Source of the DNA: a virus | Taxonomy: Duplodnaviria; Caudoviricetes | Virus record (IMG/VR): IMGVR_UViG_2934748790_000001 | Coordinates: 1-64,000 of that record | DNA length: 64,000 nt | Strand: one strand, 5' to 3' | Shown: positions 6,733 through 29,181 of the stretch, piece after piece | Position numbering within the stretch: position 1 is the first letter of the stretch | Layout of the letters: each line of letters begins with the position of its first letter | The notes under the pieces: model-generated | Database searches by the model: none | Seen by the model: only the letters and a program-made list of their open reading frames with translations | Told to the model about the DNA's origin: nothing | Position numbers and translations under genes: made by a program

Positions 6733-6735
6733 GGC

Positions 6736-8527: not shown

Positions 8528-8651
8528 GTAAAACCTCCTCGTTGTGTGGGCTCACCGAAGACCAGACCGCCTGGAATTCCAGCGGGCTGGTCATCAGTGA
8601 ATCTGCACGACGCGGAATGCGATGCCGGCCATTCGAGGGCCGGCCGGCGGG

Positions 8652-9275: not shown

Positions 9276-9295
9276 GGCTGACTCCGGTTCTCTGA

Positions 9296-9335
9296 TTTCG
9301 GGCATGAAAAAAGCGGCTGCCGAATGGCGAGCCGC
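9296..9335 (-). terminator. Hairpin + TTTTTCATGCCCGAAA element
   Basis: Same tail at 21150-21206, variant at 4062-4095. Confidence 0.6.
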
Positions 9336-9357
9336 GACAGGTTGCTGCTGTGTCCGT

Positions 9358-9816: not shown

Positions 9817-9878
9817 TTCTTCCCCTTGCCATGTCAGATGGTCGAGTGCGTGGCGGGGCCGCGATGCCCCGGTAGCTA

Positions 9879-11248: not shown

Positions 11249-11255
11249 GGGGTTC

Positions 11256-12116
11256 CTACTCGTAGATGCGGGTCTGGAGTTTGATGTCGCTGATGGGGCC
11301 GAAGGCGTCACAGATCGCGCCGGTGGTCTCCGCCCAGTCCCGCAGGCCGGGTACGCGCAGGATTTCGGTGATCTGGCCCTCGGGGGCGTAGAGGATGACG
11401 AGTTCACGGGCGGCGATGTCCCCGTAGCTGGGGGTCCAGGTGGCGAAAGACATGGACCCGGACTCGGTGGTGCGGCCGTGGAAGTAGAAGACCGCCTGGT
11501 TGTAGGGGTTGAGGTCGGCGTCGATGACGCGCGGCTCGGGCTTCCCACGGTTGGGCAGCTTCTCGGCCTGGAACCGGCCGGCGGGCAGGTCGTGCCGTAC
11601 GCCGTACTCGCGGTCACGGAAGGTGAAGTAGGCGGCGTAGCGCGGGTTGTCGGTGACCACCCGCCAGTCCCCGACGAACGTGTGCAGGTAGTCGACGGCG
11701 TAGTCCCACCACAGCCGGGCGGTCTCCCGGGCGCGGACGTCCGGCTCCGCGCCGAGCATGTCGCGCGTGTGGCACAGCACGGTGATGGACTCCGGGCGTC
11801 CCGCGCATCCGTTCGTCTGGAACCGGAACCAGTTGGGGCTGCCGGTCTTGCCGCAGTCGAAGCACCTGGCCTCGTGCTCGTCGTCCTCGACCAGTCGGTG
11901 TCCCTCGGCGACCTCGATGAAGGCGCTCTCCGGCATGTGGACGTGGAGCGGGACGATGCGGCCCTTGAGTCGGGGCCTGCGGGTGAAGCCCTCACCGCAC
12001 GGCTTGCAGACGGGCTCACGGACAGCGGTCTGCGTCTCGGGGTCGGGGTAGAGCAGCATGTGGGTGGCGGTGCCGGTGCAGTCCGGCGCCGTGCCCTTGA
12101 GGGTGCTACAGCGCAT
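11256..12116 (-). CDS. Phage hypothetical protein with Zn-ribbon motifs
   Basis: CxxC pairs; GAGGA RBS. Confidence 0.75.
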   Translation of the reverse strand: MRCSTLKGTAPDCTGTATHMLLYPDPETQTAVREPVCKPCGEGFTRRPRLKGRIVPLHVHMPESAFIEVAEGHRLVEDDEHEARCFDCGKTGSPNWFRFQTNGCAGRPESITVLCHTRDMLGAEPDVRARETARLWWDYAVDYLHTFVGDWRVVTDNPRYAAYFTFRDREYGVRHDLPAGRFQAEKLPNRGKPEPRVIDADLNPYNQAVFYFHGRTTESGSMSFATWTPSYGDIAARELVILYAPEGQITEILRVPGLRDWAETTGAICDAFGPISDIKLQTRIYE

Positions 12117-12723
12117 CGGTGGAGTCCTCTTCCTGGGCGAGCCAGTAGGTGTTGTAGCCCATCTCGAACCGGATCGGGCCGGTGGCCTCGCGGACGAGGG
12201 TGACGGCCTCGTGGCGGCTCATCGTGACGCCCTTGGTGAGGTGCACCTTGGCGCTGAGTCGCGTGGACCAGATGATGAACCAGAGCAGCTCGTACTTGGC
12301 CTCGTGGAACGGCATGGGGATCGTGGAGGAGGTCACCGGGATGCCGGACAGCACCTCGGTCTGCTTCCAGCCGGCCGAGAGCTTCGGCCGGCCGGCCTCC
12401 TCACCGCCGGCGAGGAAGCGGCACACGCTTTCGGTGGCGTCCTGGTGGAACATGCGGTCCCAGACGGCGGCCTTCATCGCGGCGTCGGGGTACGCGTCCA
12501 GCGCCGCGAGCAGGTTGTCGGTGCCGGTGTCCCCGTCGAAGTAGCGGGCGTGCCACCACTCCCCGTCCTCAGAGAAGCCGGTCGTCCCCTTCTTCCCGTC
12601 GTACTGCCGACCCACCATCCAGCGCTCCCCGCAGGTGGCGAGGAACACCCCCTGCATGTGGTCGGGCGACACCTGCTGCCGGGTCTGCGTGACGATCGTC
12701 CAGCCCTGCACAACTGCGTTCAT
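12106..12723 (-). CDS. Phage hypothetical protein
   Basis: Coupled ORF. Confidence 0.75.
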   Translation of the reverse strand: MNAVVQGWTIVTQTRQQVSPDHMQGVFLATCGERWMVGRQYDGKKGTTGFSEDGEWWHARYFDGDTGTDNLLAALDAYPDAAMKAAVWDRMFHQDATESVCRFLAGGEEAGRPKLSAGWKQTEVLSGIPVTSSTIPMPFHEAKYELLWFIIWSTRLSAKVHLTKGVTMSRHEAVTLVREATGPIRFEMGYNTYWLAQEEDSTDAL

Positions 12724-13163
12724 TCGTCGTCCTCCTGGTTCATGGTGCGGAACTCGGCGGCTGCGGCCTCGGTCGACGGAGCGCTCACCAGCGCGACCCG
12801 GGACGTGAAATCGTCGGCCGCTTCGAAGGTGTTGTCCGGCAGGGGGAATGCGCCGTCGAGGATGGCGGAGACGAACCGCTCTCCGGAGAAGTCGGACTGC
12901 ACACCGAAGACGGTGTACATCCGATTCCCCTCGTCGGTGGGGCCCGGTGCAGCGTCGAGTTGCAAGCTGTAGAGCAGCTTGACGAGGCGGTCGGCTTCCG
13001 CCGCCAGGTCGTGTCCGGCCTGGATCTCGGCGTCGTTGCTGTCGCCCTCGGCCGCCTCTTCGAGCCGGTGGCTCTCACGGGCGAGGGCTTCGAGGACCTC
13101 GCTGATCGCTTCCTGCTGCGCCCGTGTCACCGGGACCAGCCGGACATCGGGGATCTCGCTCAT
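12720..13163 (-). CDS. Phage hypothetical acidic protein
   Basis: GAGG RBS. Confidence 0.7.
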   Translation of the reverse strand: MSEIPDVRLVPVTRAQQEAISEVLEALARESHRLEEAAEGDSNDAEIQAGHDLAAEADRLVKLLYSLQLDAAPGPTDEGNRMYTVFGVQSDFSGERFVSAILDGAFPLPDNTFEAADDFTSRVALVSAPSTEAAAAEFRTMNQEDDE

Positions 13164-13165
13164 CG

Positions 13166-13684
13166 TTACCTCTTTCGCAGTTGTTCGACGGGGACGCGGA
13201 CCGCCTGGCCGATGCCGTGCTCCGGGCGGCAGATCACGTAGCCCGTCAGCAGGTGGCTGTCGCCCTCGTAGGGCGTGTTCTCCAGGTCGAGCACTCGCCA
13301 CGTCCGGTGAGACGCCCTTCGGTGGACGAGCTGGCCGACGCTCAGGTTGAAGACGCCGGTCCACAGGTCGGCCACGAATGCGCGCAGGACGGGGTCCGGG
13401 ATCTCTCTCGGGTTCTCGAAAGCGCCGAGCATGTCCGGGGTGCCGGCGAAGTTCCACAGGTGGTCGATCGCGACCCAGCGGTTGCCGCTCGCGTTCTTCT
13501 CCTGGACTATCGCGACGATCGGCAGCTTTCGACCGGCGCGCATTTCTGCTGCGTCCTCGTCGCTGAAGTCGTCGAGTCGGTACCGGTTCTCCCGAAAGCG
13601 GTGCTGGACGGGCTGCCCCTCTTCGGGCCAGCCCTGGTCGGCGATCAGGACTCGGAGTCCACTGGGCGGCTTACGCTGCGACAC
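13166..13684 (-). CDS. Phage hypothetical protein
   Basis: AGGAG RBS. Confidence 0.7.
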   Translation of the reverse strand: MSQRKPPSGLRVLIADQGWPEEGQPVQHRFRENRYRLDDFSDEDAAEMRAGRKLPIVAIVQEKNASGNRWVAIDHLWNFAGTPDMLGAFENPREIPDPVLRAFVADLWTGVFNLSVGQLVHRRASHRTWRVLDLENTPYEGDSHLLTGYVICRPEHGIGQAVRVPVEQLRKR

Positions 13685-14039
13685 GAACGTTCATCTCCTT
13701 CTTTTCCAGGTTCACGGTCGCCGGGTAATCCCGGGTCTCCGCCGGGCTGGGAAACCGCTCGCGCATCTTCTCGATCCGCTCGATGCGGCCGGCCCACGCA
13801 CCCACGTGCCGGAGGCAGAACAGGTACCGGGTCAGCGAGTCCCAGGAGTGCGGGTCGACCGCAGCCCACGCGCACGCCCGCTCGTACAGGCGCCACAGCC
13901 GGGCCAGCTCCGGGCACTGGGCCCACCCGTGTGACAGGTGGATGTGGCCGCCGGGGAAGTGCACGTAGATCCGGCAGCCGCAATTCAGCACGTACGTGCC
14001 GGATTCCAGGCCGATCGTGTCGGCCTTGATGTCAGCCAT
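13671..14039 (-). CDS. Phage hypothetical protein
   Basis: GGAGG RBS. Confidence 0.7.
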   Translation of the reverse strand: MADIKADTIGLESGTYVLNCGCRIYVHFPGGHIHLSHGWAQCPELARLWRLYERACAWAAVDPHSWDSLTRYLFCLRHVGAWAGRIERIEKMRERFPSPAETRDYPATVNLEKKEMNVRVAA

Positions 14040-14892
14040 GCTGAGCCTCCTCGGTGTGTGTGTCGGTGAACTGGGGCTCGTCCCCCTCGGGCTGGTAGCC
14101 GGCCCCGACGACGTTGGTCCAGGAGTAGCCGCCCGGTGCTCGATCCGTGTCGAGGGAGAGGCGGGCCGGGTCGAACGGGAGGCGCACGGTGCCGCGCACC
14201 TTCACGGTGTGACCCGACCCGTTCCAGGTGTCGAGCACCAGCAACTCGGGGTCGGTCCACTGCACGGTGATGGTCGGCTTCGCGTCGGGAAGCGCGCCCC
14301 GGATCTTGTTTACCGCGTCCCAGACCGCGCGCACGTCACCGCGCCACAGAATGTGCAGTCCGCCCCCGTAGCTGGCGTGCGCCACCAACTCCCGCAGCTC
14401 CGAGAAGTTGTCCGGGAAGTCGAGGCCGGCGCCCTCCGCCAGCATTTTTGCTGTGGCAGTCAGCTTCTCTTCGGAGGCCCGCCAAGGGTCTCCACCCACC
14501 TCCACATCGAGGCGGTAGCGGAACAGTTGCGGTCCGGTCCCGTCCATCAGGTCGCCGATCGGATCGGACTGGTCGCGCTCCTCGATCGCGTGGCGCACCT
14601 GGTCGAGCACGTCGTGCTTCTCCAGGAATTCCCTGGTGTCGTCATCCAGGAGTTCCCCGAGGACGTGCTGCGTGCCGTGGTAGCGGTTCTCGTCCAGCCA
14701 GTCGAAGTCGAGCACGCCTTCCGCGTGGTCGAGCCCGGATGCGTCCTCGTCCTCCGCGAACAGCCGGTGAAGCTGCTCCTCGGACAGGCGGTCCCCCTGG
14801 TCGATGTGCACCAGCTCGTACTTCTCGCCGAGACGGTTGATTACGAAATCAGCGGCAGCCTGCGCGAAATCGTCCGTCGAAATCTCCGCCAT
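14032..14892 (-). CDS. Phage hypothetical acidic protein
   Basis: GGGGAG RBS, high GC3. Confidence 0.8.
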   Translation of the reverse strand: MAEISTDDFAQAAADFVINRLGEKYELVHIDQGDRLSEEQLHRLFAEDEDASGLDHAEGVLDFDWLDENRYHGTQHVLGELLDDDTREFLEKHDVLDQVRHAIEERDQSDPIGDLMDGTGPQLFRYRLDVEVGGDPWRASEEKLTATAKMLAEGAGLDFPDNFSELRELVAHASYGGGLHILWRGDVRAVWDAVNKIRGALPDAKPTITVQWTDPELLVLDTWNGSGHTVKVRGTVRLPFDPARLSLDTDRAPGGYSWTNVVGAGYQPEGDEPQFTDTHTEEAQHG

Positions 14893-14895
14893 GGC

Positions 14896-15603
14896 TCACT
14901 CCCCCTTAACCGTGCGGATCTTGAGCTGACCCTCGACCCGGGGCTGATGGGTGTGGGGCACGATGGCCGAGATGTCGATCCCGCACGTGTCGCAGGTGAA
15001 GGTGTGCGCCTCCCACGGCTGACCGCAGAGCACGCACGCCTCGTTCTCCTTTTCCGGAGTGCGGACCTCCACGGTCTTGGTGGAGTCCGGGTAGAGCACG
15101 AAGCGCCAACTGAGCCACGCGTGCGGGTGCTGCGCGGCGGCTTCCTTGACGTTGTCCTCGTCGATGAACTCCGGGTGGGACAACCCCCACTCCCGCAGCG
15201 TGCCGGCCGTCAGCTTGGCCAGGGCACGGGGCAGCTCGTACGCCTCGCGTATCGTGCGCGCCAGACCCGCTTCGCTCGGCGACTTCTCCCCCAGCACGAG
15301 CCACTTGCCGCACTTGTCTCCGGTGCACCGCTCATCCGAGATGGCGTGCCGCACACCGGTCTCGCCTCCCGGCACCTCGGTCAGCTCGGTCTCGCACATC
15401 TGCTCCGTGATGCCCTTGGGGAACTCGCTCTGGTCGTAGGAGCGTTCGTCCTCGAAGTCGACCCCCAGCGTTGCGGCTGCGGCCCGGATCGCGTCCTCGT
15501 GCGCCTTACCGCGCTGCACCTTGATGCCGCTCGCCCGCATCGCCTTTACCGTGCAACTCGGGCACAGGTTCTCGGCCTGGTAGCTGTATCCGACGACACC
15601 CAT
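14896..15603 (-). CDS. Phage hypothetical Zn-finger-rich protein
   Basis: Four CxxC-type motifs; GGAGG RBS. Confidence 0.75.
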   Translation of the reverse strand: MGVVGYSYQAENLCPSCTVKAMRASGIKVQRGKAHEDAIRAAAATLGVDFEDERSYDQSEFPKGITEQMCETELTEVPGGETGVRHAISDERCTGDKCGKWLVLGEKSPSEAGLARTIREAYELPRALAKLTAGTLREWGLSHPEFIDEDNVKEAAAQHPHAWLSWRFVLYPDSTKTVEVRTPEKENEACVLCGQPWEAHTFTCDTCGIDISAIVPHTHQPRVEGQLKIRTVKGE

Positions 15604-15605
15604 GG

Positions 15606-16109
15606 TCAGCCCTCCTTCGGTCCCGTGATGGGGGACCACTCGTTGACGAACTTGATGTGGCCGTAGGAGTCCAGCTCGATGTATCCCGTGGTCCCGGCGA
15701 GCAGCCAGCCGATCCACTTCCGGCTGCGAGCCGTCTCGATCGACAGGCCCTTGAAGCCGATCGGCTCACCGCAGCGCGGGTGCGCGGCGTAGAGCGCGCG
15801 GGCCGTTGCCGGTTCCAGGAGCGGGATGATGCGCCAGCCGCGTTCCTGTGCGATCTGCTCCGCCAGGTCGACCCCGGCCGCGAAGATGCCGCCCTCGTAG
15901 GTGCGCGGGTTCGCGGTCGTCACATGCAGCTCGTTGAAGTTCTCGGTCAACGCGAACGGCCACGTCCATGCGATCCCGATGACCTCCTCGTCTTCGATCA
16001 CGAGGACGTCACCATCGCGGACGTTCTCGTTGCACTGGCACGCGTCGTACGCGGCAGTAGTGCTGTGGAACGGCCACACGGCCGGGGTGCGCTTCTCTTC
16101 CGCGCTCAC
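15606..16109 (-). CDS. Phage hypothetical protein
   Basis: GTGA overlap; FHSTTAAYDACQC..GDVLVI motif. Confidence 0.7.
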   Translation of the reverse strand: MSAEEKRTPAVWPFHSTTAAYDACQCNENVRDGDVLVIEDEEVIGIAWTWPFALTENFNELHVTTANPRTYEGGIFAAGVDLAEQIAQERGWRIIPLLEPATARALYAAHPRCGEPIGFKGLSIETARSRKWIGWLLAGTTGYIELDSYGHIKFVNEWSPITGPKEG

Positions 16110-16693
16110 ATTGCCCTCGATTCTTCGGTGCGGTATCGGCCGGCGAACAGGTTGTGGTGGGTGGGGAGGTCGACCCAGGTGTCCCGGGTGGTCCTGGTGA
16201 CGTGCTCCCGGATCTCGGTGTCGAGAGGCACGTGTGCGGAGCGGGACCACCAGCTCCCCAGCGTCTGGCTGTTCTCCACGAAGCGGACCTCGGCGCTCGG
16301 GATGTCCCGCCCGTGCATCTCGCGGGCCGCATCGCGCATCTCCTCGAAGTGCAGCGACTGGACGCCGTAGGACTGGCGGCCGTTGACGTAGACGTAGAAG
16401 CGCCCGGCCGTGTGGGTCACCGAGTGGCTGACGCCGATTTCGAGGACGTCGGTGCCGTAGTAGCCCTCGGAGTCGCGGTAGAAGCCGCTGATCCAGCTCA
16501 GCGGGTTCGGCATCCCGTTGTCGCGGCCGTCGACCGGGTTCCGGAGCTGGCCGAAGCCGTTCTCCAGGATGCGGACGGGCAGACGCTTGTCGACCAGGCC
16601 GAGGTGCATCATGCACTCAGAGGCGTGGATCTTGACGACGACGGTTTCGCCGACCGTGGGGTAATACTTTTCGGGCCGCTTGTAGTGGGGCAC
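16106..16693 (-). CDS. Phage hypothetical protein
   Basis: GGAGG RBS. Confidence 0.75.
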   Translation of the reverse strand: MPHYKRPEKYYPTVGETVVVKIHASECMMHLGLVDKRLPVRILENGFGQLRNPVDGRDNGMPNPLSWISGFYRDSEGYYGTDVLEIGVSHSVTHTAGRFYVYVNGRQSYGVQSLHFEEMRDAAREMHGRDIPSAEVRFVENSQTLGSWWSRSAHVPLDTEIREHVTRTTRDTWVDLPTHHNLFAGRYRTEESRAM

Positions 16694-16810
16694 CGCTATC
16701 CCTCCCTAGTTTCTACATGGCTGACAGTCGGAGGCCCGGGACGCGGCATTGCTGCTGCGTCCTGGACTGCCGTTAGCTCAGACACTTGTCTTTACGCTGG
16801 GGGTCCTGCT

Positions 16811-17014
16811 CTACGCGGGGTCAGAGTCGAAGAACACCGGCATTTCGTTGATGGTTTCACCGGTGATGCGAACCCCGTTTTCGAACTGGATTCCGCAGTG
16901 CTCCTCCTTGCCGAGGATTTCGCGCACCAGCCGGTCGGCCTCTTCGCGGCTGCTCGCCACGACTGTCACGACGCATTCCTTCTTGCCGTCGTACGCGTAC
17001 TGCCGCTCAGGCAT
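16811..17014 (-). CDS. Small phage protein
   Basis: GAGGGAG RBS. Confidence 0.6.
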   Translation of the reverse strand: MPERQYAYDGKKECVVTVVASSREEADRLVREILGKEEHCGIQFENGVRITGETINEMPVFFDSDPA

Positions 17015-17029
17015 ATTGCTCCCTCGATA

Positions 17030-17329
17030 TCAGACACCGATAGGTGTGCGCGTGGCGTCGATGTGCACCACAAACGCCTCATAAAATGCGCCGCCCCGGT
17101 ATTCGTGCACCCGCACACGGAGTTGGGGAAGGCCGTTCCTCATGCGTGCTCTCATGTGGCGCACGCAGTAGGACGCAACAGGATCGGGCTCGGTCTCATC
17201 TCGGCGTGGCTTGAGTTGCACGTACCGGGTCGCGGTATCGGTCCACGAGGGCGGCCGGCCGACCGCCGGGGGTTCGTAGACCTGGAGCATGAAGAACCAG
17301 AGCAATTCGACGGGGTCAGGCGTAGTCAC
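17030..17329 (-). CDS. Small phage protein
   Basis: Fills gap in operon; start uncertain. Confidence 0.45.
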   Translation of the reverse strand: MTTPDPVELLWFFMLQVYEPPAVGRPPSWTDTATRYVQLKPRRDETEPDPVASYCVRHMRARMRNGLPQLRVRVHEYRGGAFYEAFVVHIDATRTPIGV

Positions 17330-17819
17330 CGGGAGTCAGTTCACGACCGACCGGAACCCTGTACGACGACCAGCGGACAACGGTGTCCTGGTCGCCGACG
17401 ATGTTGTACAGGATCTGCTTGTCACGAGCGCCGCTCGGGTACTCGTGGTAATCCTCGGCGTACTCTCTTGCCGTTTCGATGGTGGGAAACGGGATTTCGG
17501 CCGGTTCGCTGTGGAAGTACCCCGAGGTGAGATTCCCTCTGATGGGCATGATGCGGAATCGTTCGCCCTCGGGCGGCATCGCACCCTCGAACAGGTACCC
17601 GTCCGTCGTGTACCAGCCACCGCCCGCGCGGCCCTGGTACTCCCTCTCGGCCGTCGCGCGGTCGTCGTAGACGGTGAGCGTCGCCTTACGCCGCTCCGAC
17701 CGCTTGTGCTGGCACGTGTCCGACCATCCCGGCGTGCGCACGTAGAACGGCTTGGGCATGGGCGTGTATCCCGGCTCGGTTTTCTCGCAGCAGGGCTCCA
17801 GAATGCAGACCGTGAACAT
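17316..17819 (-). CDS. Phage hypothetical protein
   Basis: GAAGGA RBS. Confidence 0.65.
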   Translation of the reverse strand: MFTVCILEPCCEKTEPGYTPMPKPFYVRTPGWSDTCQHKRSERRKATLTVYDDRATAEREYQGRAGGGWYTTDGYLFEGAMPPEGERFRIMPIRGNLTSGYFHSEPAEIPFPTIETAREYAEDYHEYPSGARDKQILYNIVGDQDTVVRWSSYRVPVGRELTPGDYA

Positions 17820-17941
17820 AAGCTTCCTTCCGCCATTCGATGGACGGGCTTTGATTTTGGGCAGCGGAAAGGGAGCCGTCCGGCACATACACGCGCCGTG
17901 GCTCCCTTTCAGCCGCATGGGTCAGTTGTCGTACCAGGCGC

Positions 17942-18736
17942 TCACGCCTTGGAGATCCAGTCGGAGTGCCAGCGCCCCTCGCGCGTCTGCCCGTCGGGGA
18001 ACTTGACCTCGACGCGCCACTCCCACGTCCAGAGCGGGGGCAGTTGGTAGTGCGCCTGCATGGGGTGCACCTGCCACTCGACCGACGTCACCTCGGCCGT
18101 TCCGAGGCTGTACCCGTTCGGCATGGCCGAGACCGCGTCGCCGACCTTGACCGGCTGTCGCGTCGGCTTGGGCGTCTGGTAGTCGCCGCGCTCCAGCCAG
18201 TCGAAGTCGTGCACGGGTCCGCCGGTCGCGCGCTGCACGTAGACCTCCCGGACCACACGCGGGCCGTCGAGCCCCATGTTCCGTGTGTGCTGCGTCCGCG
18301 CCACCACTCGCAGCGACTCCCCCTTGAGATCGGGGACCTCGTACGTCCACAGTTCGTCGGCCATGGAGTTCACTACCAGGCCGCGAATGCGGATGTTCGC
18401 TTCCTCACCGGTCAGCGACTCGACCAGAGCCGCGCCGGGATGCGTCGGCTGCATGTGGTGCACGAGCACTTCGAAATCCACGTTCTGTTCCCTTCTATGA
18501 GAAATGGCCCGCACGGGTTGCCGTACGGACCTTTCGGTCAGCCCTTCCCCGGCCGCATAATTCGGTCCGGTTCGATGAGCTTCGCAATATGCGGTTGAAA
18601 GCCAGCGCTTGATGGTCCAGCGCTCCACGTCCTCCCACCAAACAGCAGACTCCCCGCAGGAATAAATCCAGCAGAAGATTTCGCCATCCGGCCCATAATT
18701 CGCGTGGACCACATGACTTTTCGAGCCGCGCGGCAT
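17942..18736 (-). CDS. Phage hypothetical protein
   Basis: TAATG coupling. Confidence 0.65.
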   Translation of the reverse strand: MPRGSKSHVVHANYGPDGEIFCWIYSCGESAVWWEDVERWTIKRWLSTAYCEAHRTGPNYAAGEGLTERSVRQPVRAISHRREQNVDFEVLVHHMQPTHPGAALVESLTGEEANIRIRGLVVNSMADELWTYEVPDLKGESLRVVARTQHTRNMGLDGPRVVREVYVQRATGGPVHDFDWLERGDYQTPKPTRQPVKVGDAVSAMPNGYSLGTAEVTSVEWQVHPMQAHYQLPPLWTWEWRVEVKFPDGQTREGRWHSDWISKA

Positions 18737-19260
18737 TACTTCGTGAGCTTGAACGCCGCGTCGACCTGCCGGAGCACGTCCCACGACGCGAAACGCTGCT
18801 GCTGCTCCGGCTTCAGCGCGTCGTGCACCGCGATCACGTGCTGGGCGGAGAACGCGTCGACCAGAACGCCGTCGATCTCCTCGGCCTGGTGCAGCTCGAC
18901 GATGCGCCGGAACGCCCCGATCCGACCTTCGGCCTCCCAGCGCTCCGCCGCCGCCTCGTGGGCGACCTCGGCCGTTTCCTCGGCGGTCAGCGGCCGGATC
19001 TCGAATTCCGACCGCCGGAAAACCAGGGACACGAGACCGCCTACCGCCGTGTCCTTGTGGCGGGCGTACTCGTCGTCGCTCACGTAGTTGTCCTCGGAGT
19101 GCCGCTGGCAGACGCCCTTCGGCGGAAGCGGGAACGTCCGGTGGTCGGCGCGCGGCAGACGCGTCACGGAATGCGTGACCGTCTCGGGGCAGATGCTCCC
19201 GGCCGCGCAACGACCCAGGACTTCAACTTCCATCCCACTGGGCAGAGTTCGACGAGCCAT
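18736..19260 (-). CDS. Phage hypothetical protein
   Basis: GAGG RBS. Confidence 0.65.
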   Translation of the reverse strand: MARRTLPSGMEVEVLGRCAAGSICPETVTHSVTRLPRADHRTFPLPPKGVCQRHSEDNYVSDDEYARHKDTAVGGLVSLVFRRSEFEIRPLTAEETAEVAHEAAAERWEAEGRIGAFRRIVELHQAEEIDGVLVDAFSAQHVIAVHDALKPEQQQRFASWDVLRQVDAAFKLTK

Positions 19261-19398
19261 CAGTGACCTCGATTTCGATGAGCAGAGTTTCTGCTGCATC
19301 CCTGCCGGTACAGCGGCTGATCGGAATGCAGGGCGTGCACAGCGCACAGCCACGGCCGGCCTCGGCACCTCCTACGCGCCGAGGCCGGCGGAAGCCAT

Positions 19399-20001
19399 CT
19401 ACGCGGTGATCTCGAACTCGCCCCGGTCCGGGTTGTAGACCGCCCGGTCGGCGAAAGCCTCCAAGAGCGTGCGAACGTCCGGCGCGAAGTGCTCGGGGTC
19501 GATCGGCCAGACCTCGTGGGTGGGGAAGCGATCGTCACGCGGGTACCCAGGGCCGAGCACGAAGTGGGACCGGGCCGCGCCGCCCTGCGGGGTCCAGAGC
19601 ACGATGCGGTGATCCTCGACCGCACCCTCCCGCACGTGCGCTTCCAGACGTCGATCGACGGCGAGCAGGCCCGGGTTGGAGAAGTTGCCGCTCTTGGTCT
19701 CGACGATCTGCTCCACCCACAGGCCGGGCACCAGCTCCGCTCGGGTGAGCGGCCGGTACGACCGCTGGATGATGGCCCGTCGCATCGCGCGCCGCGTCCG
19801 CTCGGAAAGGGCGGGGTCGGGCCGGTCGGCGATTTCGCCCGCCGGAATGGGCGGGCGGGTGCCCGGACGGCTACCGCCGTACACGTAGGGCTTGGACACC
19901 TCGACCGGCTCGAACCGTCCGGCGGGGCCGGTTGCCGGGCCGCGTACATGTGCCGCCTGCCGGGCTTCCTTGCGGTAAATGCCATCGCGCCGCGAGTTCA
20001 T
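19399..20001 (-). CDS. Phage hypothetical protein
   Basis: ATGA coupling. Confidence 0.65.
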   Translation of the reverse strand: MNSRRDGIYRKEARQAAHVRGPATGPAGRFEPVEVSKPYVYGGSRPGTRPPIPAGEIADRPDPALSERTRRAMRRAIIQRSYRPLTRAELVPGLWVEQIVETKSGNFSNPGLLAVDRRLEAHVREGAVEDHRIVLWTPQGGAARSHFVLGPGYPRDDRFPTHEVWPIDPEHFAPDVRTLLEAFADRAVYNPDRGEFEITA

Positions 20002-20276
20002 GCCTGTGCTCCGATCTTGTCGTCGAAGGTGCGCGCCTTGAACATGTCGGGCGCGGCGGCGTTGTAGGGGTGCTCGGCGATCTGTCGCCAGTCCAGGGCC
20101 GTGGAACGGCCGTGGTTCATGGCCACGAGCAATCCGGCGGCGAGACCCATCAGGTATTCGATGTCCGGGGCGGTGATCGGGTAGAACCCGACCGTTTCGG
20201 CCGTGAAGGTGTCGTAGACCTCCACCGTGAATACGGTCACCGTCGGGAACGGCGGGGGGTCGATCGGGAGCGTCAT
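19998..20276 (-). CDS. Small phage protein
   Basis: GAGGA RBS. Confidence 0.65.
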   Translation of the reverse strand: MTLPIDPPPFPTVTVFTVEVYDTFTAETVGFYPITAPDIEYLMGLAAGLLVAMNHGRSTALDWRQIAEHPYNAAAPDMFKARTFDDKIGAQA

Positions 20277-20287
20277 GCTGCTGTCCT

Positions 20288-20773
20288 CTATCCGTATTGG
20301 AAGATCACGGGGGCTACGCGTCGGTCGGTGCGGGGGTTCTCCGGCGGGATTTCGGAGGCGGAAAAGGTGGGGGGCTGAATCGGATCGACCGGAGCCGACT
20401 CGCGCGGGTACTCCTCCTGCACAATGCGGACCGGCCTGCGAAGAAACGCGGCGTTGCGGTCGCGTCCACGCTCGGCCTCGTCGCGGGAAAGCGCCCACGA
20501 CTCACGCCCGGTCATCGGCTCGAATCCCTTGCCGTCGCCCCAGTCCATTTCCAGGCGGAACGTCGGTGCGGCAGCGATGGACCAGACGATGCGTCCGGCC
20601 ATGTCGATCAGGCGGACCCCGCCAATCCACACGTGCGGGTAGGCGTTGTAGAACCGGCGGGCGTCCCGGATAGCGCGGGCCTTTTCGGCGTCCGTCGTGC
20701 CCCAGAGCTGACCGGAATACGTGCACCAGACGCGCCGCGCGTCGAAGTGCTCAAGACGCAGCGTCCCGCTCAT
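20288..20773 (-). CDS. Phage hypothetical protein
   Basis: ATGA coupling. Confidence 0.65.
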   Translation of the reverse strand: MSGTLRLEHFDARRVWCTYSGQLWGTTDAEKARAIRDARRFYNAYPHVWIGGVRLIDMAGRIVWSIAAAPTFRLEMDWGDGKGFEPMTGRESWALSRDEAERGRDRNAAFLRRPVRIVQEEYPRESAPVDPIQPPTFSASEIPPENPRTDRRVAPVIFQYG

Positions 20774-21129
20774 CGGGTCGGCTCCCACAGGTAGCGGACG
20801 GAGTACGGGTTCGACGCGTCGTAGGCGTCGGTCCGGATCAGCACCCGCTCATATACCGACGTCGGGCCGATCCGGCGTCCGCGCACCTGTTCCGGGGTGC
20901 GGTTGACGCACTGCCGGATCACGCGACGGATACGGGTGCGCGCCTCGCACGCCTCGCGGTGCAGTTTGGCGACGGTCTCCGACGTCACCCTGTCGTCCAT
21001 TCGCTGCAACTTCCGCAGTGCAGGCAGGGTGACTGCCGCGCTCGCGAGTCGGCACTGTCCGCCGAATCCGCCGCGCATTTCGTCGCGCACCAGGCGTTGA
21101 GCCGCTGCGCGCTTGAGCCGGTCACTCAT
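20770..21129 (-). CDS. Basic phage protein
   Basis: AGGAGG RBS. Confidence 0.7.
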   Translation of the reverse strand: MSDRLKRAAAQRLVRDEMRGGFGGQCRLASAAVTLPALRKLQRMDDRVTSETVAKLHREACEARTRIRRVIRQCVNRTPEQVRGRRIGPTSVYERVLIRTDAYDASNPYSVRYLWEPTR

Positions 21130-21226
21130 GAACTGCCACCTCCTTTCGTTTTCGGGCATGAAAAAGGGCCGCGCCCGGGACGATTTCTCGCCCGGCCTGC
21201 GGCCCTCCGATGTGCCTAGCTTGCTG

Positions 21227-21772
21227 TTAGTCGCCCGTCGAGTAACGGACCGACGCACCGTGCTTTCGCGCGTAGATCGTGCGACGTCCGCCCTCGACGT
21301 TGATCACGCCGACCAAACGCCACCCGGGGTTGCCGTACTGGTGGTGCACGATGCGCATCGCTGCCGCCCGCATCTCCCTGTCCAGTTCGGCGGCCTTGAT
21401 CGGCGTGTGCACGCGCGTGCGCAGTTCCGGGGCGGGCAGCACCTTGACCGGCTCCGCCGTCGCGTCCGGCGCGGGGGTGCCCGTGGCGGCCTGCCAGATG
21501 GAGCGCTTCGGCATGTCGGACGGCTTGGCCGCGTCCCGGGCGGGGGTGTTCGGGAGGACCGACGGGGAGCGCTTGGCCGCGAACGTGGCCGATACGGTCT
21601 CGCGCGTCCGGGTCATGTTGTCCGCCGCGAGCATCCCCAAGGACGAGTGCATGCCCGTGGCCTCGAACTCAGCGGCGCGCATGTGGTCCAGGAAACCGAG
21701 GGAGGTCCGGCGCGCGTTGGCGTTCCGCTTACGCTGCGCACGCTTGCGGGCGCGGGTGGTGGAACGACTCAT
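21227..21772 (-). CDS. Arg-rich basic phage protein
   Basis: AGGAG RBS; RARKRAQRKR N-terminus. Confidence 0.7.
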   Translation of the reverse strand: MSRSTTRARKRAQRKRNANARRTSLGFLDHMRAAEFEATGMHSSLGMLAADNMTRTRETVSATFAAKRSPSVLPNTPARDAAKPSDMPKRSIWQAATGTPAPDATAEPVKVLPAPELRTRVHTPIKAAELDREMRAAAMRIVHHQYGNPGWRLVGVINVEGGRRTIYARKHGASVRYSTGD

Positions 21773-22272
21773 AATTCTTTGATCTCCTTTTCCAAGTTGC
21801 GCACGGTTCGCCGAATGTCCTTGACCAAAACGGCGTAGGTGTCGCGGGCGATTCCGGTAGCGGCGCGCTGCTTTTCCAGCGCGTAGTCTCGCGCCGCGCG
21901 AGCGTCCGCCTTGACACGCATGTCATATACGGGCGACGTTGCGTCAACGCGCATGAGGAACTGATATCCGCTGTTGTCCGAATGCCCCATGCCCCGCGCG
22001 TACGATCCGGGCGCATAGGTGGGGGAGTTACCCAAGTCCGTAGGAGCATCCGAGACGATGTGACGCTTAGGGGTACGGAGGTTCTTACCCGTGTGGCGCT
22101 TGTGGGGCGCGTTGACCTTTGCGCCCGTCCGGTCACCGCGAAGATTGATCTTCCCCCGGTAGTCAACGCGGTGAGTCTTCGCCTTGTGGCTACGGGTGTC
22201 CGGGGTAACCGTGGTTCGGGGAAGCGGGGGGCCGAAAGAAACTGTCGGCGCTCCGTAGTAACTACCGGCCAT
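21769..22272 (-). CDS. Basic phage protein, first gene of leftward array
   Basis: AAAGGA RBS; atypical codon usage. Confidence 0.6.
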   Translation of the reverse strand: MAGSYYGAPTVSFGPPLPRTTVTPDTRSHKAKTHRVDYRGKINLRGDRTGAKVNAPHKRHTGKNLRTPKRHIVSDAPTDLGNSPTYAPGSYARGMGHSDNSGYQFLMRVDATSPVYDMRVKADARAARDYALEKQRAATGIARDTYAVLVKDIRRTVRNLEKEIKEL

Positions 22273-22289
22273 GTCGTTTTCCTTTCCTG

Positions 22290-23270
22290 TGAGATTCAGC
22301 CGCTGTCAGATGAGTACGCGCCCTAGGTCTCGCACCTAGTCAGATCACCCAATGTTCCGGGCGTCAGAGCTATATTCACGCGTGCCATTTCCTCTTTGGG
22401 TTTGTGTCGCTCATGGCATCCACCCATGACCCCGCATCCACGGTCGGTCATTTGGGGGAGGGAATCCGAGCACGTGTGACACTCTCCCCCTGCCAAGGGG
22501 GGTGCCTACGCGGTAGTGGTTCTTTGGGGGGTGTCCGGCACTATTGACCCTTTCGAGCCGCCATTCACCCATGCGGCGAGTCTCCGCAGCATGGTTCAAC
22601 GGGCATTGACGTCATCCGGGAGGACCCTAGCTATGTCCCCTGCCGATTTCTGCCGTAACCAGCCGCCTACTAGGGCACCCCTAGCGGTTCGGTTCTGTCG
22701 TCCCGTGTTACCGGTCCCCCTGCCGTTGCACGTATCCGCGCACAGCTCAAGATTCCGTTGTAATGTCTCGTGATTTCGAAAGTTCATGAGCACGGTAAAC
22801 CGCGCGGTGAAATCACCGGTGAGACACTACGTCCCTACACAACTACCTTTCGTGTCCAGAAAGCGCCGCTCACGCTCCGACCCCACCACAGGGCTTTACC
22901 GATCCGTGGTCGGGCACCCACGCTTCACAGCGTTGGTACGCGACTGACGAAACGGCCGTCCGGAAGTGACGCGCCCGCAGAAATGTGTGTTCTGCTTTTG
23001 GCCTTGCGCAGGCCGCGCCACGATGGGACGGGAGAATGGCAACCGAGACCGTAAAGGCTTAAATGATGTCCCCTAAGAAACCAGGGACTTAGCCACGGTC
23101 ACGCGCGGGGAGGAAATATCACCGCGAGTGCCAGGAACCGGGTTAGGACCGGCGTCACACCCGCTAAGCGCACGGGTGCCCAAGAGCACAGGGAGGGAAT
23201 TTCCCTCCGCGTTAATCACCTTCCTTTCGCGCCCCCCGCGTCCGCCGGAGTGGCGGGCTGTCGTGGTGAC
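22290..23270 (-). ncRNA. Putative ~1 kb structured leader or large ncRNA
   Basis: No credible ORF; many hairpins; lies between a predicted promoter and the first leftward ATG. Confidence 0.45.
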
Positions 23271-23310
23271 AAGGAAGACACTACGGGTACAGAGAGCCCT
23301 TCTGTACCCC
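23271..23310 (-). promoter_or_regulatory. Leftward promoter (TAGTGT -10) with overlapping palindromic operator
   Basis: TAGTGT at 23283-23278; GGGTACAGA-GAGCCCT-TCTGTACCC inverted repeat at 23285-23309. Confidence 0.55.
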
Positions 23311-24658
23311 TTTACTGTAGCCGTGTGGGCACAGAGAGTATTTACGCAGGTCAGCGGCGGTGTATTGGCCTAAAGAATCTTGGAAACCTAGGGAGAATCT
23401 CAAATGTTGAGACGACTGGGCGGCCCGTTTCGCCCCATAAAGTCAGCACAAGACGCGTTATACCGCCTAGTTCCTTACTAGGTACGGCGTGACGGATAAT
23501 AAGCAGGCAAACCGGACCCAAGATTCACAAGCGCGCATGATTATCACGACAACCCCAAAAAGGGCCCCTGACCTGCACTTTCGCCTTTTTCCTGACTGGC
23601 CGTCAGGTGTGCGAGCGGGCGACGACCGCGACAGCCGAAAACACGGAGAGTGGCGAATTCCGCCGAAAATCGGGGAAGAATTACGCTACGTGTCCGCGTC
23701 CCTGTATGCCTGCCTGCGGCCCTCTCCTCCCCCGGGGGTCCGTCGCTCCGGCCAGTCCCCCCGGGGGACTCACGCGTCCGGCCACGGGTCCGCGCGGCAT
23801 CGCTCCGGCTGTACCGTCCGGCCGTACCGGGCCCGTGCGTCGCGCTGCCTGCCCGCGTGAGAGCCTGTCTCGGCGTGCGCGCCCGACGGTCCCCCCGTGC
23901 CGGACGGCACGGCAGAACGGCGCACAGCAGCCCGCCCCCACAAAGAGGGCATGACGGACACGCCCCAGAAAATGCCAGGGCGCAAAAATTCGGGGGGTCT
24001 GGGGCGTCTGCCTTCTATCTCCACGTATGGGAGAGAGGCGAGGTATACCGTGCTCGCCCTGGTACGGGGCTCATGCGCGGCATATGCGCTTAAGCGGCTT
24101 AGGTGGAGTGTGCGGGACTACGAGGTGGTAACTACCCCTTGCCCCGCTCTAGAGCGTATGCCAGGGGTGCAACATATGAGTCGGTACACACTATTTAGGC
24201 AGTACCTGCGGCCTTGCCCTGCTTAGTGCGCCTGTGCCCTGCTATGCGCGCGCTTCACCTTACGTCCGTATTTGCTGAGCAAAGAGGAATGCGCCCTCCG
24301 CTTGTGTCGCTGCGCGTGAGGGATCATTTACGCTGCGCTCACCATTGCGCATGGTAGCTGGAACTACCGTGCGTAAGAACGGGCATGTCCGTTCAAGCAT
24401 GACTTAGCCGACATGGGGGGCCTTTGCGCCGTATCAGGGCGCACGCCACAATCACCCCTAACCCCCATGAAGCTGTCCTTACCCGTGGAAACGGACAAAT
24501 AGGTGACGTATCCCTGCAAAGGGGACCCCCCACCATTAAACGGGCGAAACGGACAGCCGGGCCCCCTGACCCGTCTTGCGAATATCGACCCTAGACCAAA
24601 AGGCAGTGTCACGGCCGACGGCAGTGGCCGTGGGCGCAGAGCAGGTGGGGGACCGCCC

Positions 24659-24859
24659 TCAGTGAACCAAGGGCTCCACCACGCACGCGAGCCCGCCGGC
24701 TTCGAGGGCCTCGGGCAGCAGGTTGTCTTTCACGTACTCGTCCAGGTCGTCGTGGCCGCATTGGCGGACCCAGTCGGCCGGCAGCATGGTGTCGTGCCTG
24801 TACACGCTCCCGGCGAACGTGACATGCAGGCGTACCGGATGATCATGTCCAGCGCTCAT
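24659..24859 (-). CDS. Small leaderless protein
   Basis: TAGAAT-6nt-ATG. Confidence 0.55.
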   Translation of the reverse strand: MSAGHDHPVRLHVTFAGSVYRHDTMLPADWVRQCGHDDLDEYVKDNLLPEALEAGGLACVVEPLVH

Positions 24860-25034
24860 GGCGGAATTCTACGTGCGCGCGGCAGACAACCGCCGACAGT
24901 GCGAATTCAGTTCGATAAATACTCGTCGCGGGTCGCCGGCCTCGCGGCCGGCTTGCATCTGCACAAGCCGACAACGTGCCATGGCAATTGCCAACTCTGC
25001 TGCGCGAACTACGCTCGCCTGAAATTCTGGTTGC

Positions 25035-25280
25035 ATGGCTAGAACAACTCGAACGACGCACGTGGTAGCCGGTCCCCCGCCACCGGCTTTCGACGCAGTA
25101 CCCGGTTGTCCCGGCTGCGCTGGCATCCTGTCCGTGGCCAGCTCCGCCTGGAGGCTCGGCTACACGCTCGCGTGGCTGGACTGGGGGTCGCGGGGCGACA
25201 CGCACCTACTCCGAGAGCATCTCGACGACGACCGGCTCGACCCCGGTTTCCTGGCGACTGCACGTAGTCAGGGGTACTGA
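25035..25280 (+). CDS. Small Zn-binding protein
   Basis: CPGC ... HLxxEH. Confidence 0.5.
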   Translation: MARTTRTTHVVAGPPPPAFDAVPGCPGCAGILSVASSAWRLGYTLAWLDWGSRGDTHLLREHLDDDRLDPGFLATARSQGY

Positions 25281-25299
25281 ACTGCCTTGAGGAGCCGCG

Positions 25300-25539
25300 C
25301 TACTTCTGCCGGCGCGACCTCATGCCCCAGAGGGGGACCAGGGGCCACAGGAGCAGCATGGCGGGATACCCGACGGCGACGGCGACGGCCGCGAAGATGG
25401 GCATCAACGTGGTGCCGTCGGGTCCCGAGAGCGCTTCAGTGAAGATTTTCTGCGGGGTGAGGTGTTGCGTTGTCAGGTACGCCATGCCGACGCAGCCGTA
25501 CGCGGTGAGGCCGAGGATCACGGACAGTGGATCGGTCAT
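25300..25539 (-). CDS. Small two-TM membrane protein
   Basis: Two hydrophobic segments, basic C-terminus; TACCGT-6nt-ATG. Confidence 0.65.
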   Translation of the reverse strand: MTDPLSVILGLTAYGCVGMAYLTTQHLTPQKIFTEALSGPDGTTLMPIFAAVAVAVGYPAMLLLWPLVPLWGMRSRRQK

Positions 25540-25780
25540 GACTGCACGGTAGCGGGTACGGCTGCGCGTGTGGCTCTACGTGGTGCTGGGTGCCGGTATG
25601 CCGAGTTGACGGGGCATCACCGGTGGTTCTCCTTGCGCGGGTCTTCCTTCCGGTTCCAGGGGTACATCCGGGGCCACAGCATCAACAAGCCGGAGTGGCC
25701 CAGGGCGGACGCGATGGACTCGAAGACGGCCGTCAGCGTGTCTGGGTGTTGGCCGTGCCGTTCCTCGTCCGGTCGGGGAT

Positions 25781-26158
25781 TCATGACAGGCCGCCGATCG
25801 GTACGCGAGGTAGCGCTCCCTTGCGGATGCGTCGGCGGTGTCGTCGTTCTTCGCGCCGGTTTGCTTTGGGGTTGCCCCAGATTCGGTGGTAGTGCCATGG
25901 CTTGCGGACGTTGAGGCACTGTCCCGACGGGTAGTAGCGCGGCTCGCAGAAGAGTCGCCTGGGGCGCGGTCGGTGGCACAGGCAGCAGATGACGACGCCA
26001 TCAGCGTCCAACTTGGCGTTCATGGTCGCTTTCAGGCGGTCTAGCGTGCGCTGGCAGCGGGCCTCTTCTTCCTCGGGGGTGAGCTGGGGCATTGAGGCTC
26101 GCCACAGGTCGCCGTAGGCGGTGAGCAACTCTTCGACGCCCAGGTTGGGTTGAGTCAT
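25781..26158 (-). CDS. Hypothetical protein
   Basis: TATGCT-6nt-ATG; C-terminal half uncertain. Confidence 0.5.
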   Translation of the reverse strand: MTQPNLGVEELLTAYGDLWRASMPQLTPEEEEARCQRTLDRLKATMNAKLDADGVVICCLCHRPRPRRLFCEPRYYPSGQCLNVRKPWHYHRIWGNPKANRREERRHRRRIRKGALPRVPIGGLS

Positions 26159-26174
26159 GGCGGCAGCATAGTGA

Positions 26175-26208
26175 TGCAATCGCACTTGCGCTTGCAGTTG
26201 CGATAGCA
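26175..26208. promoter_or_regulatory. Triple TGC-N4-GCA operator array
   Basis: 12-bp period; related arrays at 26827, 30592, 31133, 37877. Confidence 0.7.
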
Positions 26209-26224
26209 CCCTTAAGATTCCGGC

Positions 26225-26785
26225 ATGACTTCAACTGAGCGTCCCCCTATCCCTGTAGAGCGACTCGGCGCCGCCTTGGACGCCTTGGGCTGGAATCCCG
26301 CTCCCAGCTCGACTCGGCCGGCGACGCGAGCCGAGATGCTGGGGATGCTGCGCCTGATCGTCGAAGCAGAGGTGCATGGACTGGTCGGTAATCCGACCGA
26401 GGAGGCAGAGGAGGCTGTCGGTTACGGGATGGCGCTCGACACGCGGACGCTCGACGGCGCGATCGACCCCGAGGACTATGCGCGGCGGAACATCTATCTG
26501 CGACTGACGCTCGCCGGGAGTCGTCTGAACCGGGCGGGCACCGAGGTCTCCGTTCTCGTCACCGAGGCGGACAAAGTGGGCGACATGGCGGGCAAGGCCG
26601 TGTGGTCCCTGGTGGAGGCCGCGCTTCAGCTCATGCGGATTCCGGCCACGTTGAACAGCGAGACCGAGGAGTTTGGCGCCCCCGTGGTGGTGCGAGCTGC
26701 CGTCCTGGAGGCCGAACCCCGCCTTCGCGAGGCGCGGAAACACCTGGGTAACTGTCTGAAGCGGTTGAAGCAGCTCGGCTATTGA
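26225..26785 (+). CDS. Helical hypothetical protein
   Basis: TAAGAT-6nt-ATG. Confidence 0.7.
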   Translation: MTSTERPPIPVERLGAALDALGWNPAPSSTRPATRAEMLGMLRLIVEAEVHGLVGNPTEEAEEAVGYGMALDTRTLDGAIDPEDYARRNIYLRLTLAGSRLNRAGTEVSVLVTEADKVGDMAGKAVWSLVEAALQLMRIPATLNSETEEFGAPVVVRAAVLEAEPRLREARKHLGNCLKRLKQLGY

Positions 26786-28062: not shown

Positions 28063-29181
28063 ATGACGAGCCAGACACTCATTTCGCCCACCCTGGACCA
28101 GATCCGGCGCGCTCCCAAGGTGCTGCTCCACGACCACCTCGACGGCGGCCTGCGGCCGGGCACGATCATCGAGCTGGCCCGCGCGCAGGGTTACGACTCC
28201 CTCCCCGAGACCGAGGCCGACAAGCTCGGCGTCTGGTTCCGCGAGGCCGCCGATTCCGGTTCGCTGGAGCGCTACCTGGAGACGTTCGCCCACACCTGCG
28301 CCGTCATGCAGACCCGTGACGCGCTGTTCCGGGTGGCCGCCGAGTGCGCCGAGGACCTCGCCGAGGACGGCGTCGTCTACGCCGAGATCCGCTACGCCCC
28401 CGAGCAGCACCTGGAGGGCGGCCTGTCCCTCGAAGAGGTCGTCGAGGCCGTCAACGAGGGCTTCCGCGAGGGCGAGCGCATCGCCCGCGCCAACGGCCAC
28501 CGCATCCGCGTCGGCGCCCTCCTCACCGCGATGCGGCACGCCGCCCGCGCACTGGAGATCGCCGAACTCGCCAACAGCTACCGCGACCAGGGTGTCGTCG
28601 GCTTCGACATCGCGGGCGCCGAGGCCGGGTTCCCGCCCACCCGTCACCTCGACGCGTTCGAGTACCTCAAGCGCGAGAACAACCACTTCACGATCCACGC
28701 GGGCGAGGCGTTCGGCCTGCCGTCGATCTGGCAGGCGCTCCAGTGGTGCGGCGCCGACCGCCTCGGCCACGGCGTGCGGATCATCGACGACATCGAGGTC
28801 GCCGATGACGGCTCGGTCACCCTCGGCCGCCTCGCCTCCTACGTACGGGACAAGCGCATCCCGCTGGAGATGTGCCCGACCTCCAACCTCCAGACCGGCG
28901 CGGCCACCTCGTACGCCGAGCACCCGATCGGACTGCTGCGCAAGCTGCACTTCCGGGTCACCGTGAACACGGACAACCGGCTGATGAGCGGCACGAGCAT
29001 GAGCCGGGAATTCGAGCTGCTGACCGAGGCATTCGGTTACACGCTGACGGATTTTGAGTGGTTTTCGGTGAATGCTTTGAAGTCTGCCTTCATCCCGTTC
29101 GATGAGCGGCTCGCGATGATCAACGAGGTCGTCAAGCCTGGGTATGCGGCCCTTCGTGCTGAGTGGCTTTTCTCTCGGTAG
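28063..29181 (+). CDS. add: Adenosine deaminase (phage-borne complete copy)
   Basis: LHDHLDG, TIHAGE, RLGHG, EMCPTSN, NTDN motifs. Confidence 0.97.

Follow-up and report, generated by a model that had tools for sequence, protein, structure and literature searches.

To our knowledge, very few bacterial or phage RNAs apart from ribosomal RNA come near 1 kilobase (kb). GOLLD, ROOL and OLE puzzled researchers for more than ten years, and only lately were they shown to form remarkable assemblies. GOLLD is frequently found in the neighbourhood of transfer RNA (tRNA) genes, and OLE RNA works together with Oap proteins as a large bacterial RNA–protein complex. Lambda N/nut and HK022 put bring about processive antitermination, and their nut and put elements are tens of nucleotides (nt) long. 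Here we analysed 64,000 nt of DNA from a tailed phage (Duplodnaviria; Caudoviricetes), hereafter the window, which makes up the first 64 kb of IMG/VR record IMGVR_UViG_2934748790_000001 (108,057 base pairs (bp), labelled provirus in IMG/VR, ~65% G+C). At 22300–23310 its minus strand carries an element that stands before a ~22-kb array of small genes and is very probably a selected, structured RNA. We put at roughly 60% the probability that this element is a discrete, multi-domain structured non-coding RNA of ~1 kb that forms the leader of the array and one module with the array's first gene.

Like GOLLD and ROOL, the candidate RNA measures several hundred to ~1,000 nt, appears to be multi-domain with conserved cores and variable stems, and is carried by phages and prophages. 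A preprint (bioRxiv 10.1101/2024.12.08.627333) places many GOLLD and ROOL copies in phages. The element differs from both in that it matches neither model, has no tRNA genes in its window and appears as a leader directly before a conserved protein gene, so far in a small Streptomyces phage clade only. An initial annotation of the sequence had suggested a large structured minus-strand RNA in the size class of ROOL/GOLLD-type phage RNAs; the structured RNA and its size class are supported, and Rfam gave no match to ROOL or GOLLD. In the manner of lambda N/nut, the RNA element would lie between the promoter region of a long early operon and its first gene, and that gene codes for a small, basic protein predicted to be largely disordered, ahead of an array of more than 20 kb. 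However, the RNA is ~1 kb long, and no boxA or boxB was identified, no nut-site model having been applied. As with OLE, conservation joins a large structured RNA to the gene beside it, which encodes a presumed partner, and the RNA would be co-transcribed with its neighbours, but there is no Rfam OLE match, the element belongs to a phage in Actinomycetota rather than to a chromosome in Bacillota, and the candidate partner is a soluble basic protein without known family. By analogy, the layout thus resembles N/nut and OLE, while the element is a member of neither.

Conservation and fold of the gene-free stretch

The initial annotation had described 22273–23310 as free of credible open reading frames (ORFs), and the longest open frame there is indeed 97 codons. 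In the frame plot of G+C at third codon positions (GC3), coding periodicity is absent from 22273 to ~24550; the gene-free stretch is really 2.3 kb long (22273 to ~24600), the largest likely-gene gap in the whole record, with lower G+C (60% versus 66%). The reported richness in TA-containing words was also recovered (per kb, TA occurs 32.8 times here and 16.0 times elsewhere in the 108-kb record, CTAG 4.8 and 0.4 times), and every quoted stem is present in the minus strand where it had been placed (Table 1). A search for iterons, repeat families and tandem repeats gave only short two-copy matches. The conserved fold described below is confined to the ~1 kb within 22273–23310 and does not take in the whole 2.3 kb.

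Protein-guided and DNA searches found one full-length relative, an IMG/VR phage record of 109,243 bp (G001). Window positions 22302–23271 match it with 74% identity over ~970 nt (E = 7e-155), and the matching stretch lies directly upstream of a homologue of the first gene that is 69% identical in amino acids (aa). Aligned with G001, the element is a succession of invariant blocks, the longest of 23 nt, separated by variable patches. Together, the element and the first gene are the best-conserved island between 12 and 33 kb, the surrounding 20 kb being far more diverged. Mismatches in the element show no preference for any phase (72/81/74, P = 0.74), and of 17 insertions or deletions (indels), 14 are not multiples of three; for the adjacent first gene, mismatches by codon position were 34/31/71 (P = 1.8e-5), with one 6-nt indel. 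The element differs from G001 at 227 of 927 ungapped columns (24.5%), compared with 41–43% at third codon positions in two genes, the terminase and the first gene. Because the phases are even, most indels shift the frame, the divergence lies below that of third codon positions and the surroundings have diverged, the sequence comparison shows that 22300–23310 on the minus strand codes for no protein and that the element is under purifying selection.

Taken as a single sequence, the element gave minimum free energy (MFE) z-scores of -2.74 (minus strand) and -0.74 (plus strand) with 20 shuffles, a fold only modestly beyond chance; with the relative included, the predicted fold is clearly beyond chance. 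The RNAalifold consensus energy of the two sequences was -323.9 kcal/mol on the minus strand and -254.8 kcal/mol on the plus strand, with five column shuffles at -186 to -204 kcal/mol. We also scored 150-nt windows against shuffles that leave the arrangement of identical, mismatched and gapped columns intact. The element gave a mean z of -3.03 on its minus strand, with a structure conservation index (SCI) of 0.67, 6 of 12 windows below -3 and 9 of 12 at about -3.0 or lower; on the plus strand it was -1.83 (1 of 12 below -3). The two strands of the downstream gene (mean z -0.36 and -0.23, 0 of 5 windows below -3), those of the terminase (-0.07 and -0.23, 0 of 19) and the 1.3 kb of non-coding DNA alongside (-0.72 on the forward and -0.65 on the reverse strand, 1 of 20 on each) served as controls. 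Since these controls, including the adjacent non-coding DNA, stay near zero, the fold signal is not an effect of composition. Projection of the single-sequence MFE structure of one phage onto the other separated the strands weakly (variable pairs kept, 55/118 and 55/120 forward, 39/106 and 48/108 reverse).

Additional relatives came from public assemblies. Contigs from four runs in four studies carry pieces at least 95% alike, of which one (X3) is a 41.7-kb contig, 96% identical, that spans the whole stretch with 49 substitutions and 7 gaps; the other three are fragments (runs X5, X6 and X8 cover parts of the stretch only). We scored the 26 listed substitutions inside 22300–23283, from X3 and the partial relatives, on the model built from this phage (G000) and G001. 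Seventeen of them lie outside the paired positions, which make up 52% of the total (P = 0.058), and all nine at paired positions retain a standard pair on the minus-strand model. Seven of these nine are single transitions between G-U and Watson–Crick pairs, which are valid only on the minus strand (chance of 7/7 being kept, 0.021), and the remaining two make up one double compensatory change, C-G to U-A, at predicted partners 23186/23232. On the plus-strand model, the same substitutions break four of nine pairs. Non-coding substitutions, a fold above controls and third-relative substitutions that respect pairs together support the claim of a structured RNA.

Several points weigh against this reading. 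The consensus model holds 47 helices with 265 pairs, of which 200 are invariant, 36 are changed on one side, 28 are changed on both and 1 has a gap, but shuffled alignments also give 14–22 'double' pairs, and the counts are biased, as the two sequences counted are those that yielded the model and RNAalifold gives credit for covariation. The set of sequences, two of full length, one 96% identical and the rest fragments, is too small for R-scape covariation statistics. Single-sequence z-scores are modest (-2.7 and -2.6), with the reverse strand of G001 at -2.4, and a strand-neutral count of G-U versus A-C gave 6 versus 1 inside helices and 30 versus 30 at helix ends. The substitution test drew on 40 of the 49 X3 substitutions, and the remaining 9 could break pairs; the pairs it tested are mostly local, 20–68 nt apart, with one at 159 nt, and the predicted model does not establish a single global fold of the element. 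A consensus scan called no minus-strand promoter in 21500–26500. Terminator-like sites in 2400–22300 number 11, versus 11.0 in shuffles, and because such sites are not enriched in the array, nothing specific points to antitermination.

Architecture and boundaries of the RNA

The element comprises a structured body with a most conserved core, a variable domain and hairpins at its two ends (Table 1). In the two-sequence model, predicted long-range helices join 23043–23031 with 22878–22865 and 22756–22747 with 22469–22461, and several long-range helices carry double changes. A GUGA tetraloop is invariant between this phage and G001. The variable domain gave no conserved fold (windows at columns 600 and 675, z +0.2 and +0.7). 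The conserved part stops ~30 nt before the ATG of the first gene; no U-run follows the 3' hairpin in either phage and, without a U-run terminator before the gene, the RNA is expected to run into it.

Table 1 Positions of the features described in the text, numbered along the window
Feature	Position	Strand	Basis or remark
Candidate promoter TTGAGA, 16-nt spacer, AAGATT	23376..23403	-	~90 nt further upstream
Upstream gene-free 1.3 kb, patchily conserved, without conserved fold	23311..24600	-	frame plot, alignment A3, sliding identity
5' hairpin/palindrome, 8-10 pairs	23285..23309	-	GGGUACAG-loop-CUGUACCC here, GGCAUCAC-loop-GUGAUGCC in G001
Structured RNA body, 975 nt, many local helices	22300..23274	-	alignment, RNAalifold, windowed z
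Predicted closing helix, 7 pairs	23274-23268 with 22307-22300	-	2 double changes, 1 single
Stem GGAGGGAA-A-TTCCCTCC	~23207-23193	-	sequence
Stem GACCGT..GTCCCT/AGGGGAC..ACGGTC	23100-23047	-	sequence
Core domain, most conserved, 178 nt, 93% column identity	22687..22864	-	alignment A4
Three-tier hairpin, 10+8+6 pairs, in core	22830-22760	-	
Stem CTCATGA..TCACGAG	22789-22766	-	sequence
GAUA/GAAA-capped hairpin in core	22746-22722	-	
Variable domain, ~160 nt	22540..22700	-	sequence and length differ, 27-nt indel
Stem CTAGGG-GTG-CCCTAG	22684-22670	-	sequence
3' hairpin CUAGGU-GCGAG-ACCUAG	22323..22339	-	stem invariant; loop GCGAG here, GCAAG in G001; quoted in the initial annotation as CTAGG-TGCGAGA-CCTAG
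Purine-rich ribosome-binding site of first gene	~22280-22290	-	
First downstream gene, 167-aa protein, isoelectric point (pI) 10.3	21769..22272	-	69% aa identity in G001
Terminase	43816-45366		
Portal	46854-48338		
Capsid	49287-50429		
Sheath	58052-60052		

At the other end, X3 substitutions are dense just upstream of the 5' hairpin (12 listed in 23294–23358, versus 26 in the 984-nt element), and because of this rise in density we place the 5' boundary at the hairpin. Four of its eight stem pairs are changed on both sides relative to G001, and its sequence fits an RNA hairpin, an operator or a terminator of upstream transcripts equally well. The initial annotation had read a TAGTGT hexamer as a -10 box beside a palindromic operator. 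Hexamer and palindrome are both present, at 23283–23278 and adjoining at 23309–23285, while their roles as -10 box and operator were not confirmed; in G001 the hexamer (23278..23283, minus strand) reads TAGAAA. Another candidate for the 5' side, TACAGT, sits just upstream of the 5' hairpin. Our preferred promoter candidate, judged by its sequence, is the TTGAGA/AAGATT pair, both boxes of which are kept in G001 (CTGAGA, AAGATT) with a spacer of the same length and different sequence (alignment A3, columns ~1574–1612). Downstream, the array runs for more than 20 kb without promoter-like sites. Within a 0.8-kb gap in the array, a strong hairpin at 18506–18531 (minus strand; 11 pairs, 8 of them G-C, then a T-containing tail) may be an internal terminator or a processing site.

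By alignment and fold prediction, the gene-free DNA upstream (23311–24600) is not part of the structured RNA. Two islands within this otherwise poorly conserved DNA, at 24340–24393 and 24490–24571, have 78–93% identity to G001. The first contains a hairpin, GGTAG-TTCCAG-CTACC, flanked by an inverted repeat (TTACGCA / TGCG(C/T)AA), and is the sole upstream window with a fold signal (z -3.7 and -3.1). Neither island codes for protein, given their frame-shifting indels; they may be promoters, operators or a small RNA.

Relatives, known families and genomic setting

A covariance model of the core (R1, 55 pairs) found one copy in this phage (213.7 bits) and one in G001 (210.8 bits), and in both the core homologous to 22687–22864 stands upstream of a homologue of the 167-aa protein encoded by the first gene. 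Searched with the same model, none of five BRock-type genomes (GiJojo, pSt2308, Alone3, LuckySocke and BRock) gave a significant match (best 10.8 bits, E = 0.225, in BRock). Nucleotide searches (blastn) found no homologue of 22200–23600 among GenBank phages or of 21769–23310 among plasmids, and loci from five Streptomyces plasmids gave no match. Neither did tblastn of the 167-aa protein and a distant family member (P0014) against phages and plasmids. Protein-guided scans of IMG/VR returned nothing for the second gene and only G001 for the first gene and its family alignment (A2); a 17-mer likewise occurred in IMG/VR only in G001. Exact-motif scans of JGI metagenomes with two motifs gave 0 and 0 matches. 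Four fragments of related phages (G002–G005) also gave no match, but they end short of this part of the genome. Scanning GTDB with a 20-mer from a conserved block at ~23145–23165 gave two exact matches, in metagenome-assembled genomes of Halobacteriales (L014:623-642) and Magnetovibrionaceae (L015:4065-4085). We rejected both as chance: blastn recovered bare 20–21-mers with unaligned flanks, at about the rate expected for 596 Gb.

The comparison with Rfam by Infernal that the initial annotation had called for (Rfam 15, 4227 families) returned no match at gathering score across the window. At E up to 5, over 21700–25000 and the homologous 2.8 kb of G001, none fell in the element of either phage; the only row was BLV_package (E = 4.5, 15.8 bits against a gathering score of 70), inside the downstream gene. 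GOLLD, ROOL, OLE, HEARO, raiA, group I and II introns, RNase P, tmRNA, 6S, riboswitches and self-cleaving ribozymes were therefore set aside, each without an Rfam match. Searches of the literature, covering listings and abstracts, found no account of an RNA of this kind from Streptomyces phages. Judged by these searches, the element most likely belongs to a family that is not catalogued, a new large structured leader RNA.

As the initial annotation had noted, the first downstream proteins are very basic, the first three having pI values of 10.3, 11.5 and 11.5. The family of the 167-aa protein comprises 18 clusters, and all its named members come from Streptomyces or Actinacidiphila. Accessions in the family include WP_382489921.1, WP_450360476.1, WP_389901746.1, WP_384597332.1, WP_125936404.1 and WP_378354120.1. 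Some members lie on 1.1- and 8.3-Mb contigs, which indicates integrated prophages in those cases. The protein has an invariant family motif around HTGKNLRxPK and no Pfam or PHROG family, and an ESM Atlas search gave no usable match. AlphaFold2 (AF2) with the family alignment reached a mean predicted local distance difference test (pLDDT) score of 59, with a confident helical hairpin only at residues 121–165; residues 1–110 are conserved, basic and predicted to be disordered (pLDDT <55). Such a pattern, conserved yet disordered as modelled, would suit a protein that folds when it binds a nucleic acid. Conservation holds the RNA and the first basic protein together as a single module, and as far as the sequence searches reach, this module is confined to a small clade of phages and prophages of the myovirus type in Streptomyces. 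For the antiterminator role in the 21-kb array and the binding by adjacent basic proteins, which the initial annotation had raised as possibilities, the only pertinent observations are this joint conservation and a protein that is basic and, by prediction, mostly disordered.

A contractile-tail gene set (Table 1) identifies the source as a tailed phage. By terminase, its nearest named relatives are the Streptomyces phages BRock, GiJojo, pSt2308, Alone3 and LuckySocke, at just 56% aa identity. Gene order in GiJojo differs from that in this phage, and GiJojo has a large tRNA array and a Ro-like protein: at 5.7–18.9 kb, upstream of the terminase, ~35 tRNA genes are interleaved with genes for the Ro-like RNA-binding protein and an RNA ligase. 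ARAGORN found 0 tRNA genes in the 64-kb window. The minus-strand gene arm extends from 26209 down to 1, with small genes nearly all without a family. Leftward and rightward arms switch at ~26215, and the gene-free 2.3 kb sits 1.5 kb away. The predicted divergent starts there are ~15 bp apart (25781–26209, minus strand, and 26225–26785, plus strand); either one start is miscalled or divergent promoters overlap coding regions. A Pfam search of 20 neighbouring and array ORFs gave a single match above the family cut-off, an Lsr2-like protein of 324 aa (3072–4046, minus strand; Lsr2 dimerisation domain, E = 1.5e-20; DNA-binding domain, E = 4.8e-12). For the neighbouring 10 ORFs, Pfam and PHROG gave sub-threshold rows only, and no reverse transcriptase or other known domain was found in either database. 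On the far side of the switch, the phage record contains a full-length adenosine deaminase (28063–29181, plus strand; Pfam A_deaminase, 353.6 bits) and a DUF5753 regulator (36897–37814, minus strand). Both look host-like and may be the cause of the provirus label.

Interpretation and alternatives

That the element leads the array is the simplest reading, because it has the same direction as the ~22-kb array and no intrinsic terminator before the first gene. Transcription itself, its start site, the global fold, protein binding and the regulated target are what we infer beyond this arrangement. Transcription would proceed towards and along the array, whose genes are small and mostly orphan, with the RNA folding during synthesis. 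Once folded, the RNA could act as a scaffold on which the basic protein, and perhaps RNA polymerase or host factors, assemble. The resulting RNA–protein unit might set the expression of the array by N/nut-like processive antitermination on a giant scale or, by an alternative route, through control of stability and translation. We advance only tentatively, and with some doubt, the proposal that the RNA acts in cis with the 167-aa protein to control the array.

The same features could belong to a free-standing, trans-acting 'ornate' RNA of the GOLLD/ROOL kind that is cut from the early transcript, for instance one that assembles into multimers or one that serves as a decoy for host defence, with its position at the array incidental. 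Such an RNA would be expected to look much as this one does, with ~1 kb in a discrete domain with a 5'–3' closing helix, GNRA-type loops and conserved cores with variable stems, and the phage location is shared with many GOLLD and ROOL copies in the preprint mentioned above (bioRxiv 10.1101/2024.12.08.627333). We nevertheless regard it as unlikely: Rfam gave no match at E up to 5, neither end carries a terminator or a known self-cleaving ribozyme, the window has no tRNA gene, and the tight, conserved linkage to a gene ~30 nt downstream suggests co-transcription. A long leader that held a string of separate local hairpins, acting as stabilisers, as RNase sites or in protein binding, with no global fold, would account for the short span (≤68 nt) of 7 of the 8 pairs tested by independent substitutions and for the lack of a conserved fold in the middle 160 nt, and the long-range helices come from the two-sequence model alone. 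Conservation nevertheless takes in loops and junctions along with stems, the 178-nt core being 93% identical throughout; a closing helix and several long-range helices with double changes are predicted; and one pair 159 nt apart was kept by an independent substitution. On this evidence, separate hairpins seem improbable.

An element acting at the DNA level, such as a replication origin, a packaging site or an operator cluster, would make the hairpins incidental palindromes. The gene-free 2.3 kb does lie 1.5 kb from the arm switch at ~26215, is lower in G+C (60% versus 66%) and is rich in TA and CTAG, and co-varying palindromes can be operators that evolve with a binding protein. However, searches found neither iterons nor repeat families, the two strands differ in fold signal, substitutions keep minus-strand pairs of the G-U type while breaking 4 of 9 plus-strand pairs, and adjacent non-coding DNA of similar composition has no fold signal, which makes a DNA element very unlikely. 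Several ORFs of 48–97 codons in the stretch would suit a decayed gene, or an unusual reading with frameshifts or another genetic code. We give this next to no credence, as substitutions show no phase bias, 14 of 17 indels shift the frame, tblastx scores are alike in several frames, GC3 periodicity is absent and conservation is too high for decay. A structured leader RNA that forms one module with the first gene accordingly remains our preferred reading.

More speculatively still than the proposed action in cis, the RNA and its disordered basic partner may be a new giant RNA–protein machine of temperate Streptomyces phages, either an N/nut-like antiterminator enlarged ~10-fold or a protein-decorated scaffold or cage that governs the orphan-gene arm, and one of a wider set of uncatalogued kilobase leader RNAs heading gene arms in large actinophages. 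The element would add a further, unrelated kilobase RNA to the few described, one carried by cultured isolates and found in genetically tractable Streptomyces phages. With a candidate partner protein encoded 30 nt downstream, it would be an experimentally accessible case, and it suggests that the long 'empty' leaders of large actinophages merit systematic screening for RNAs.

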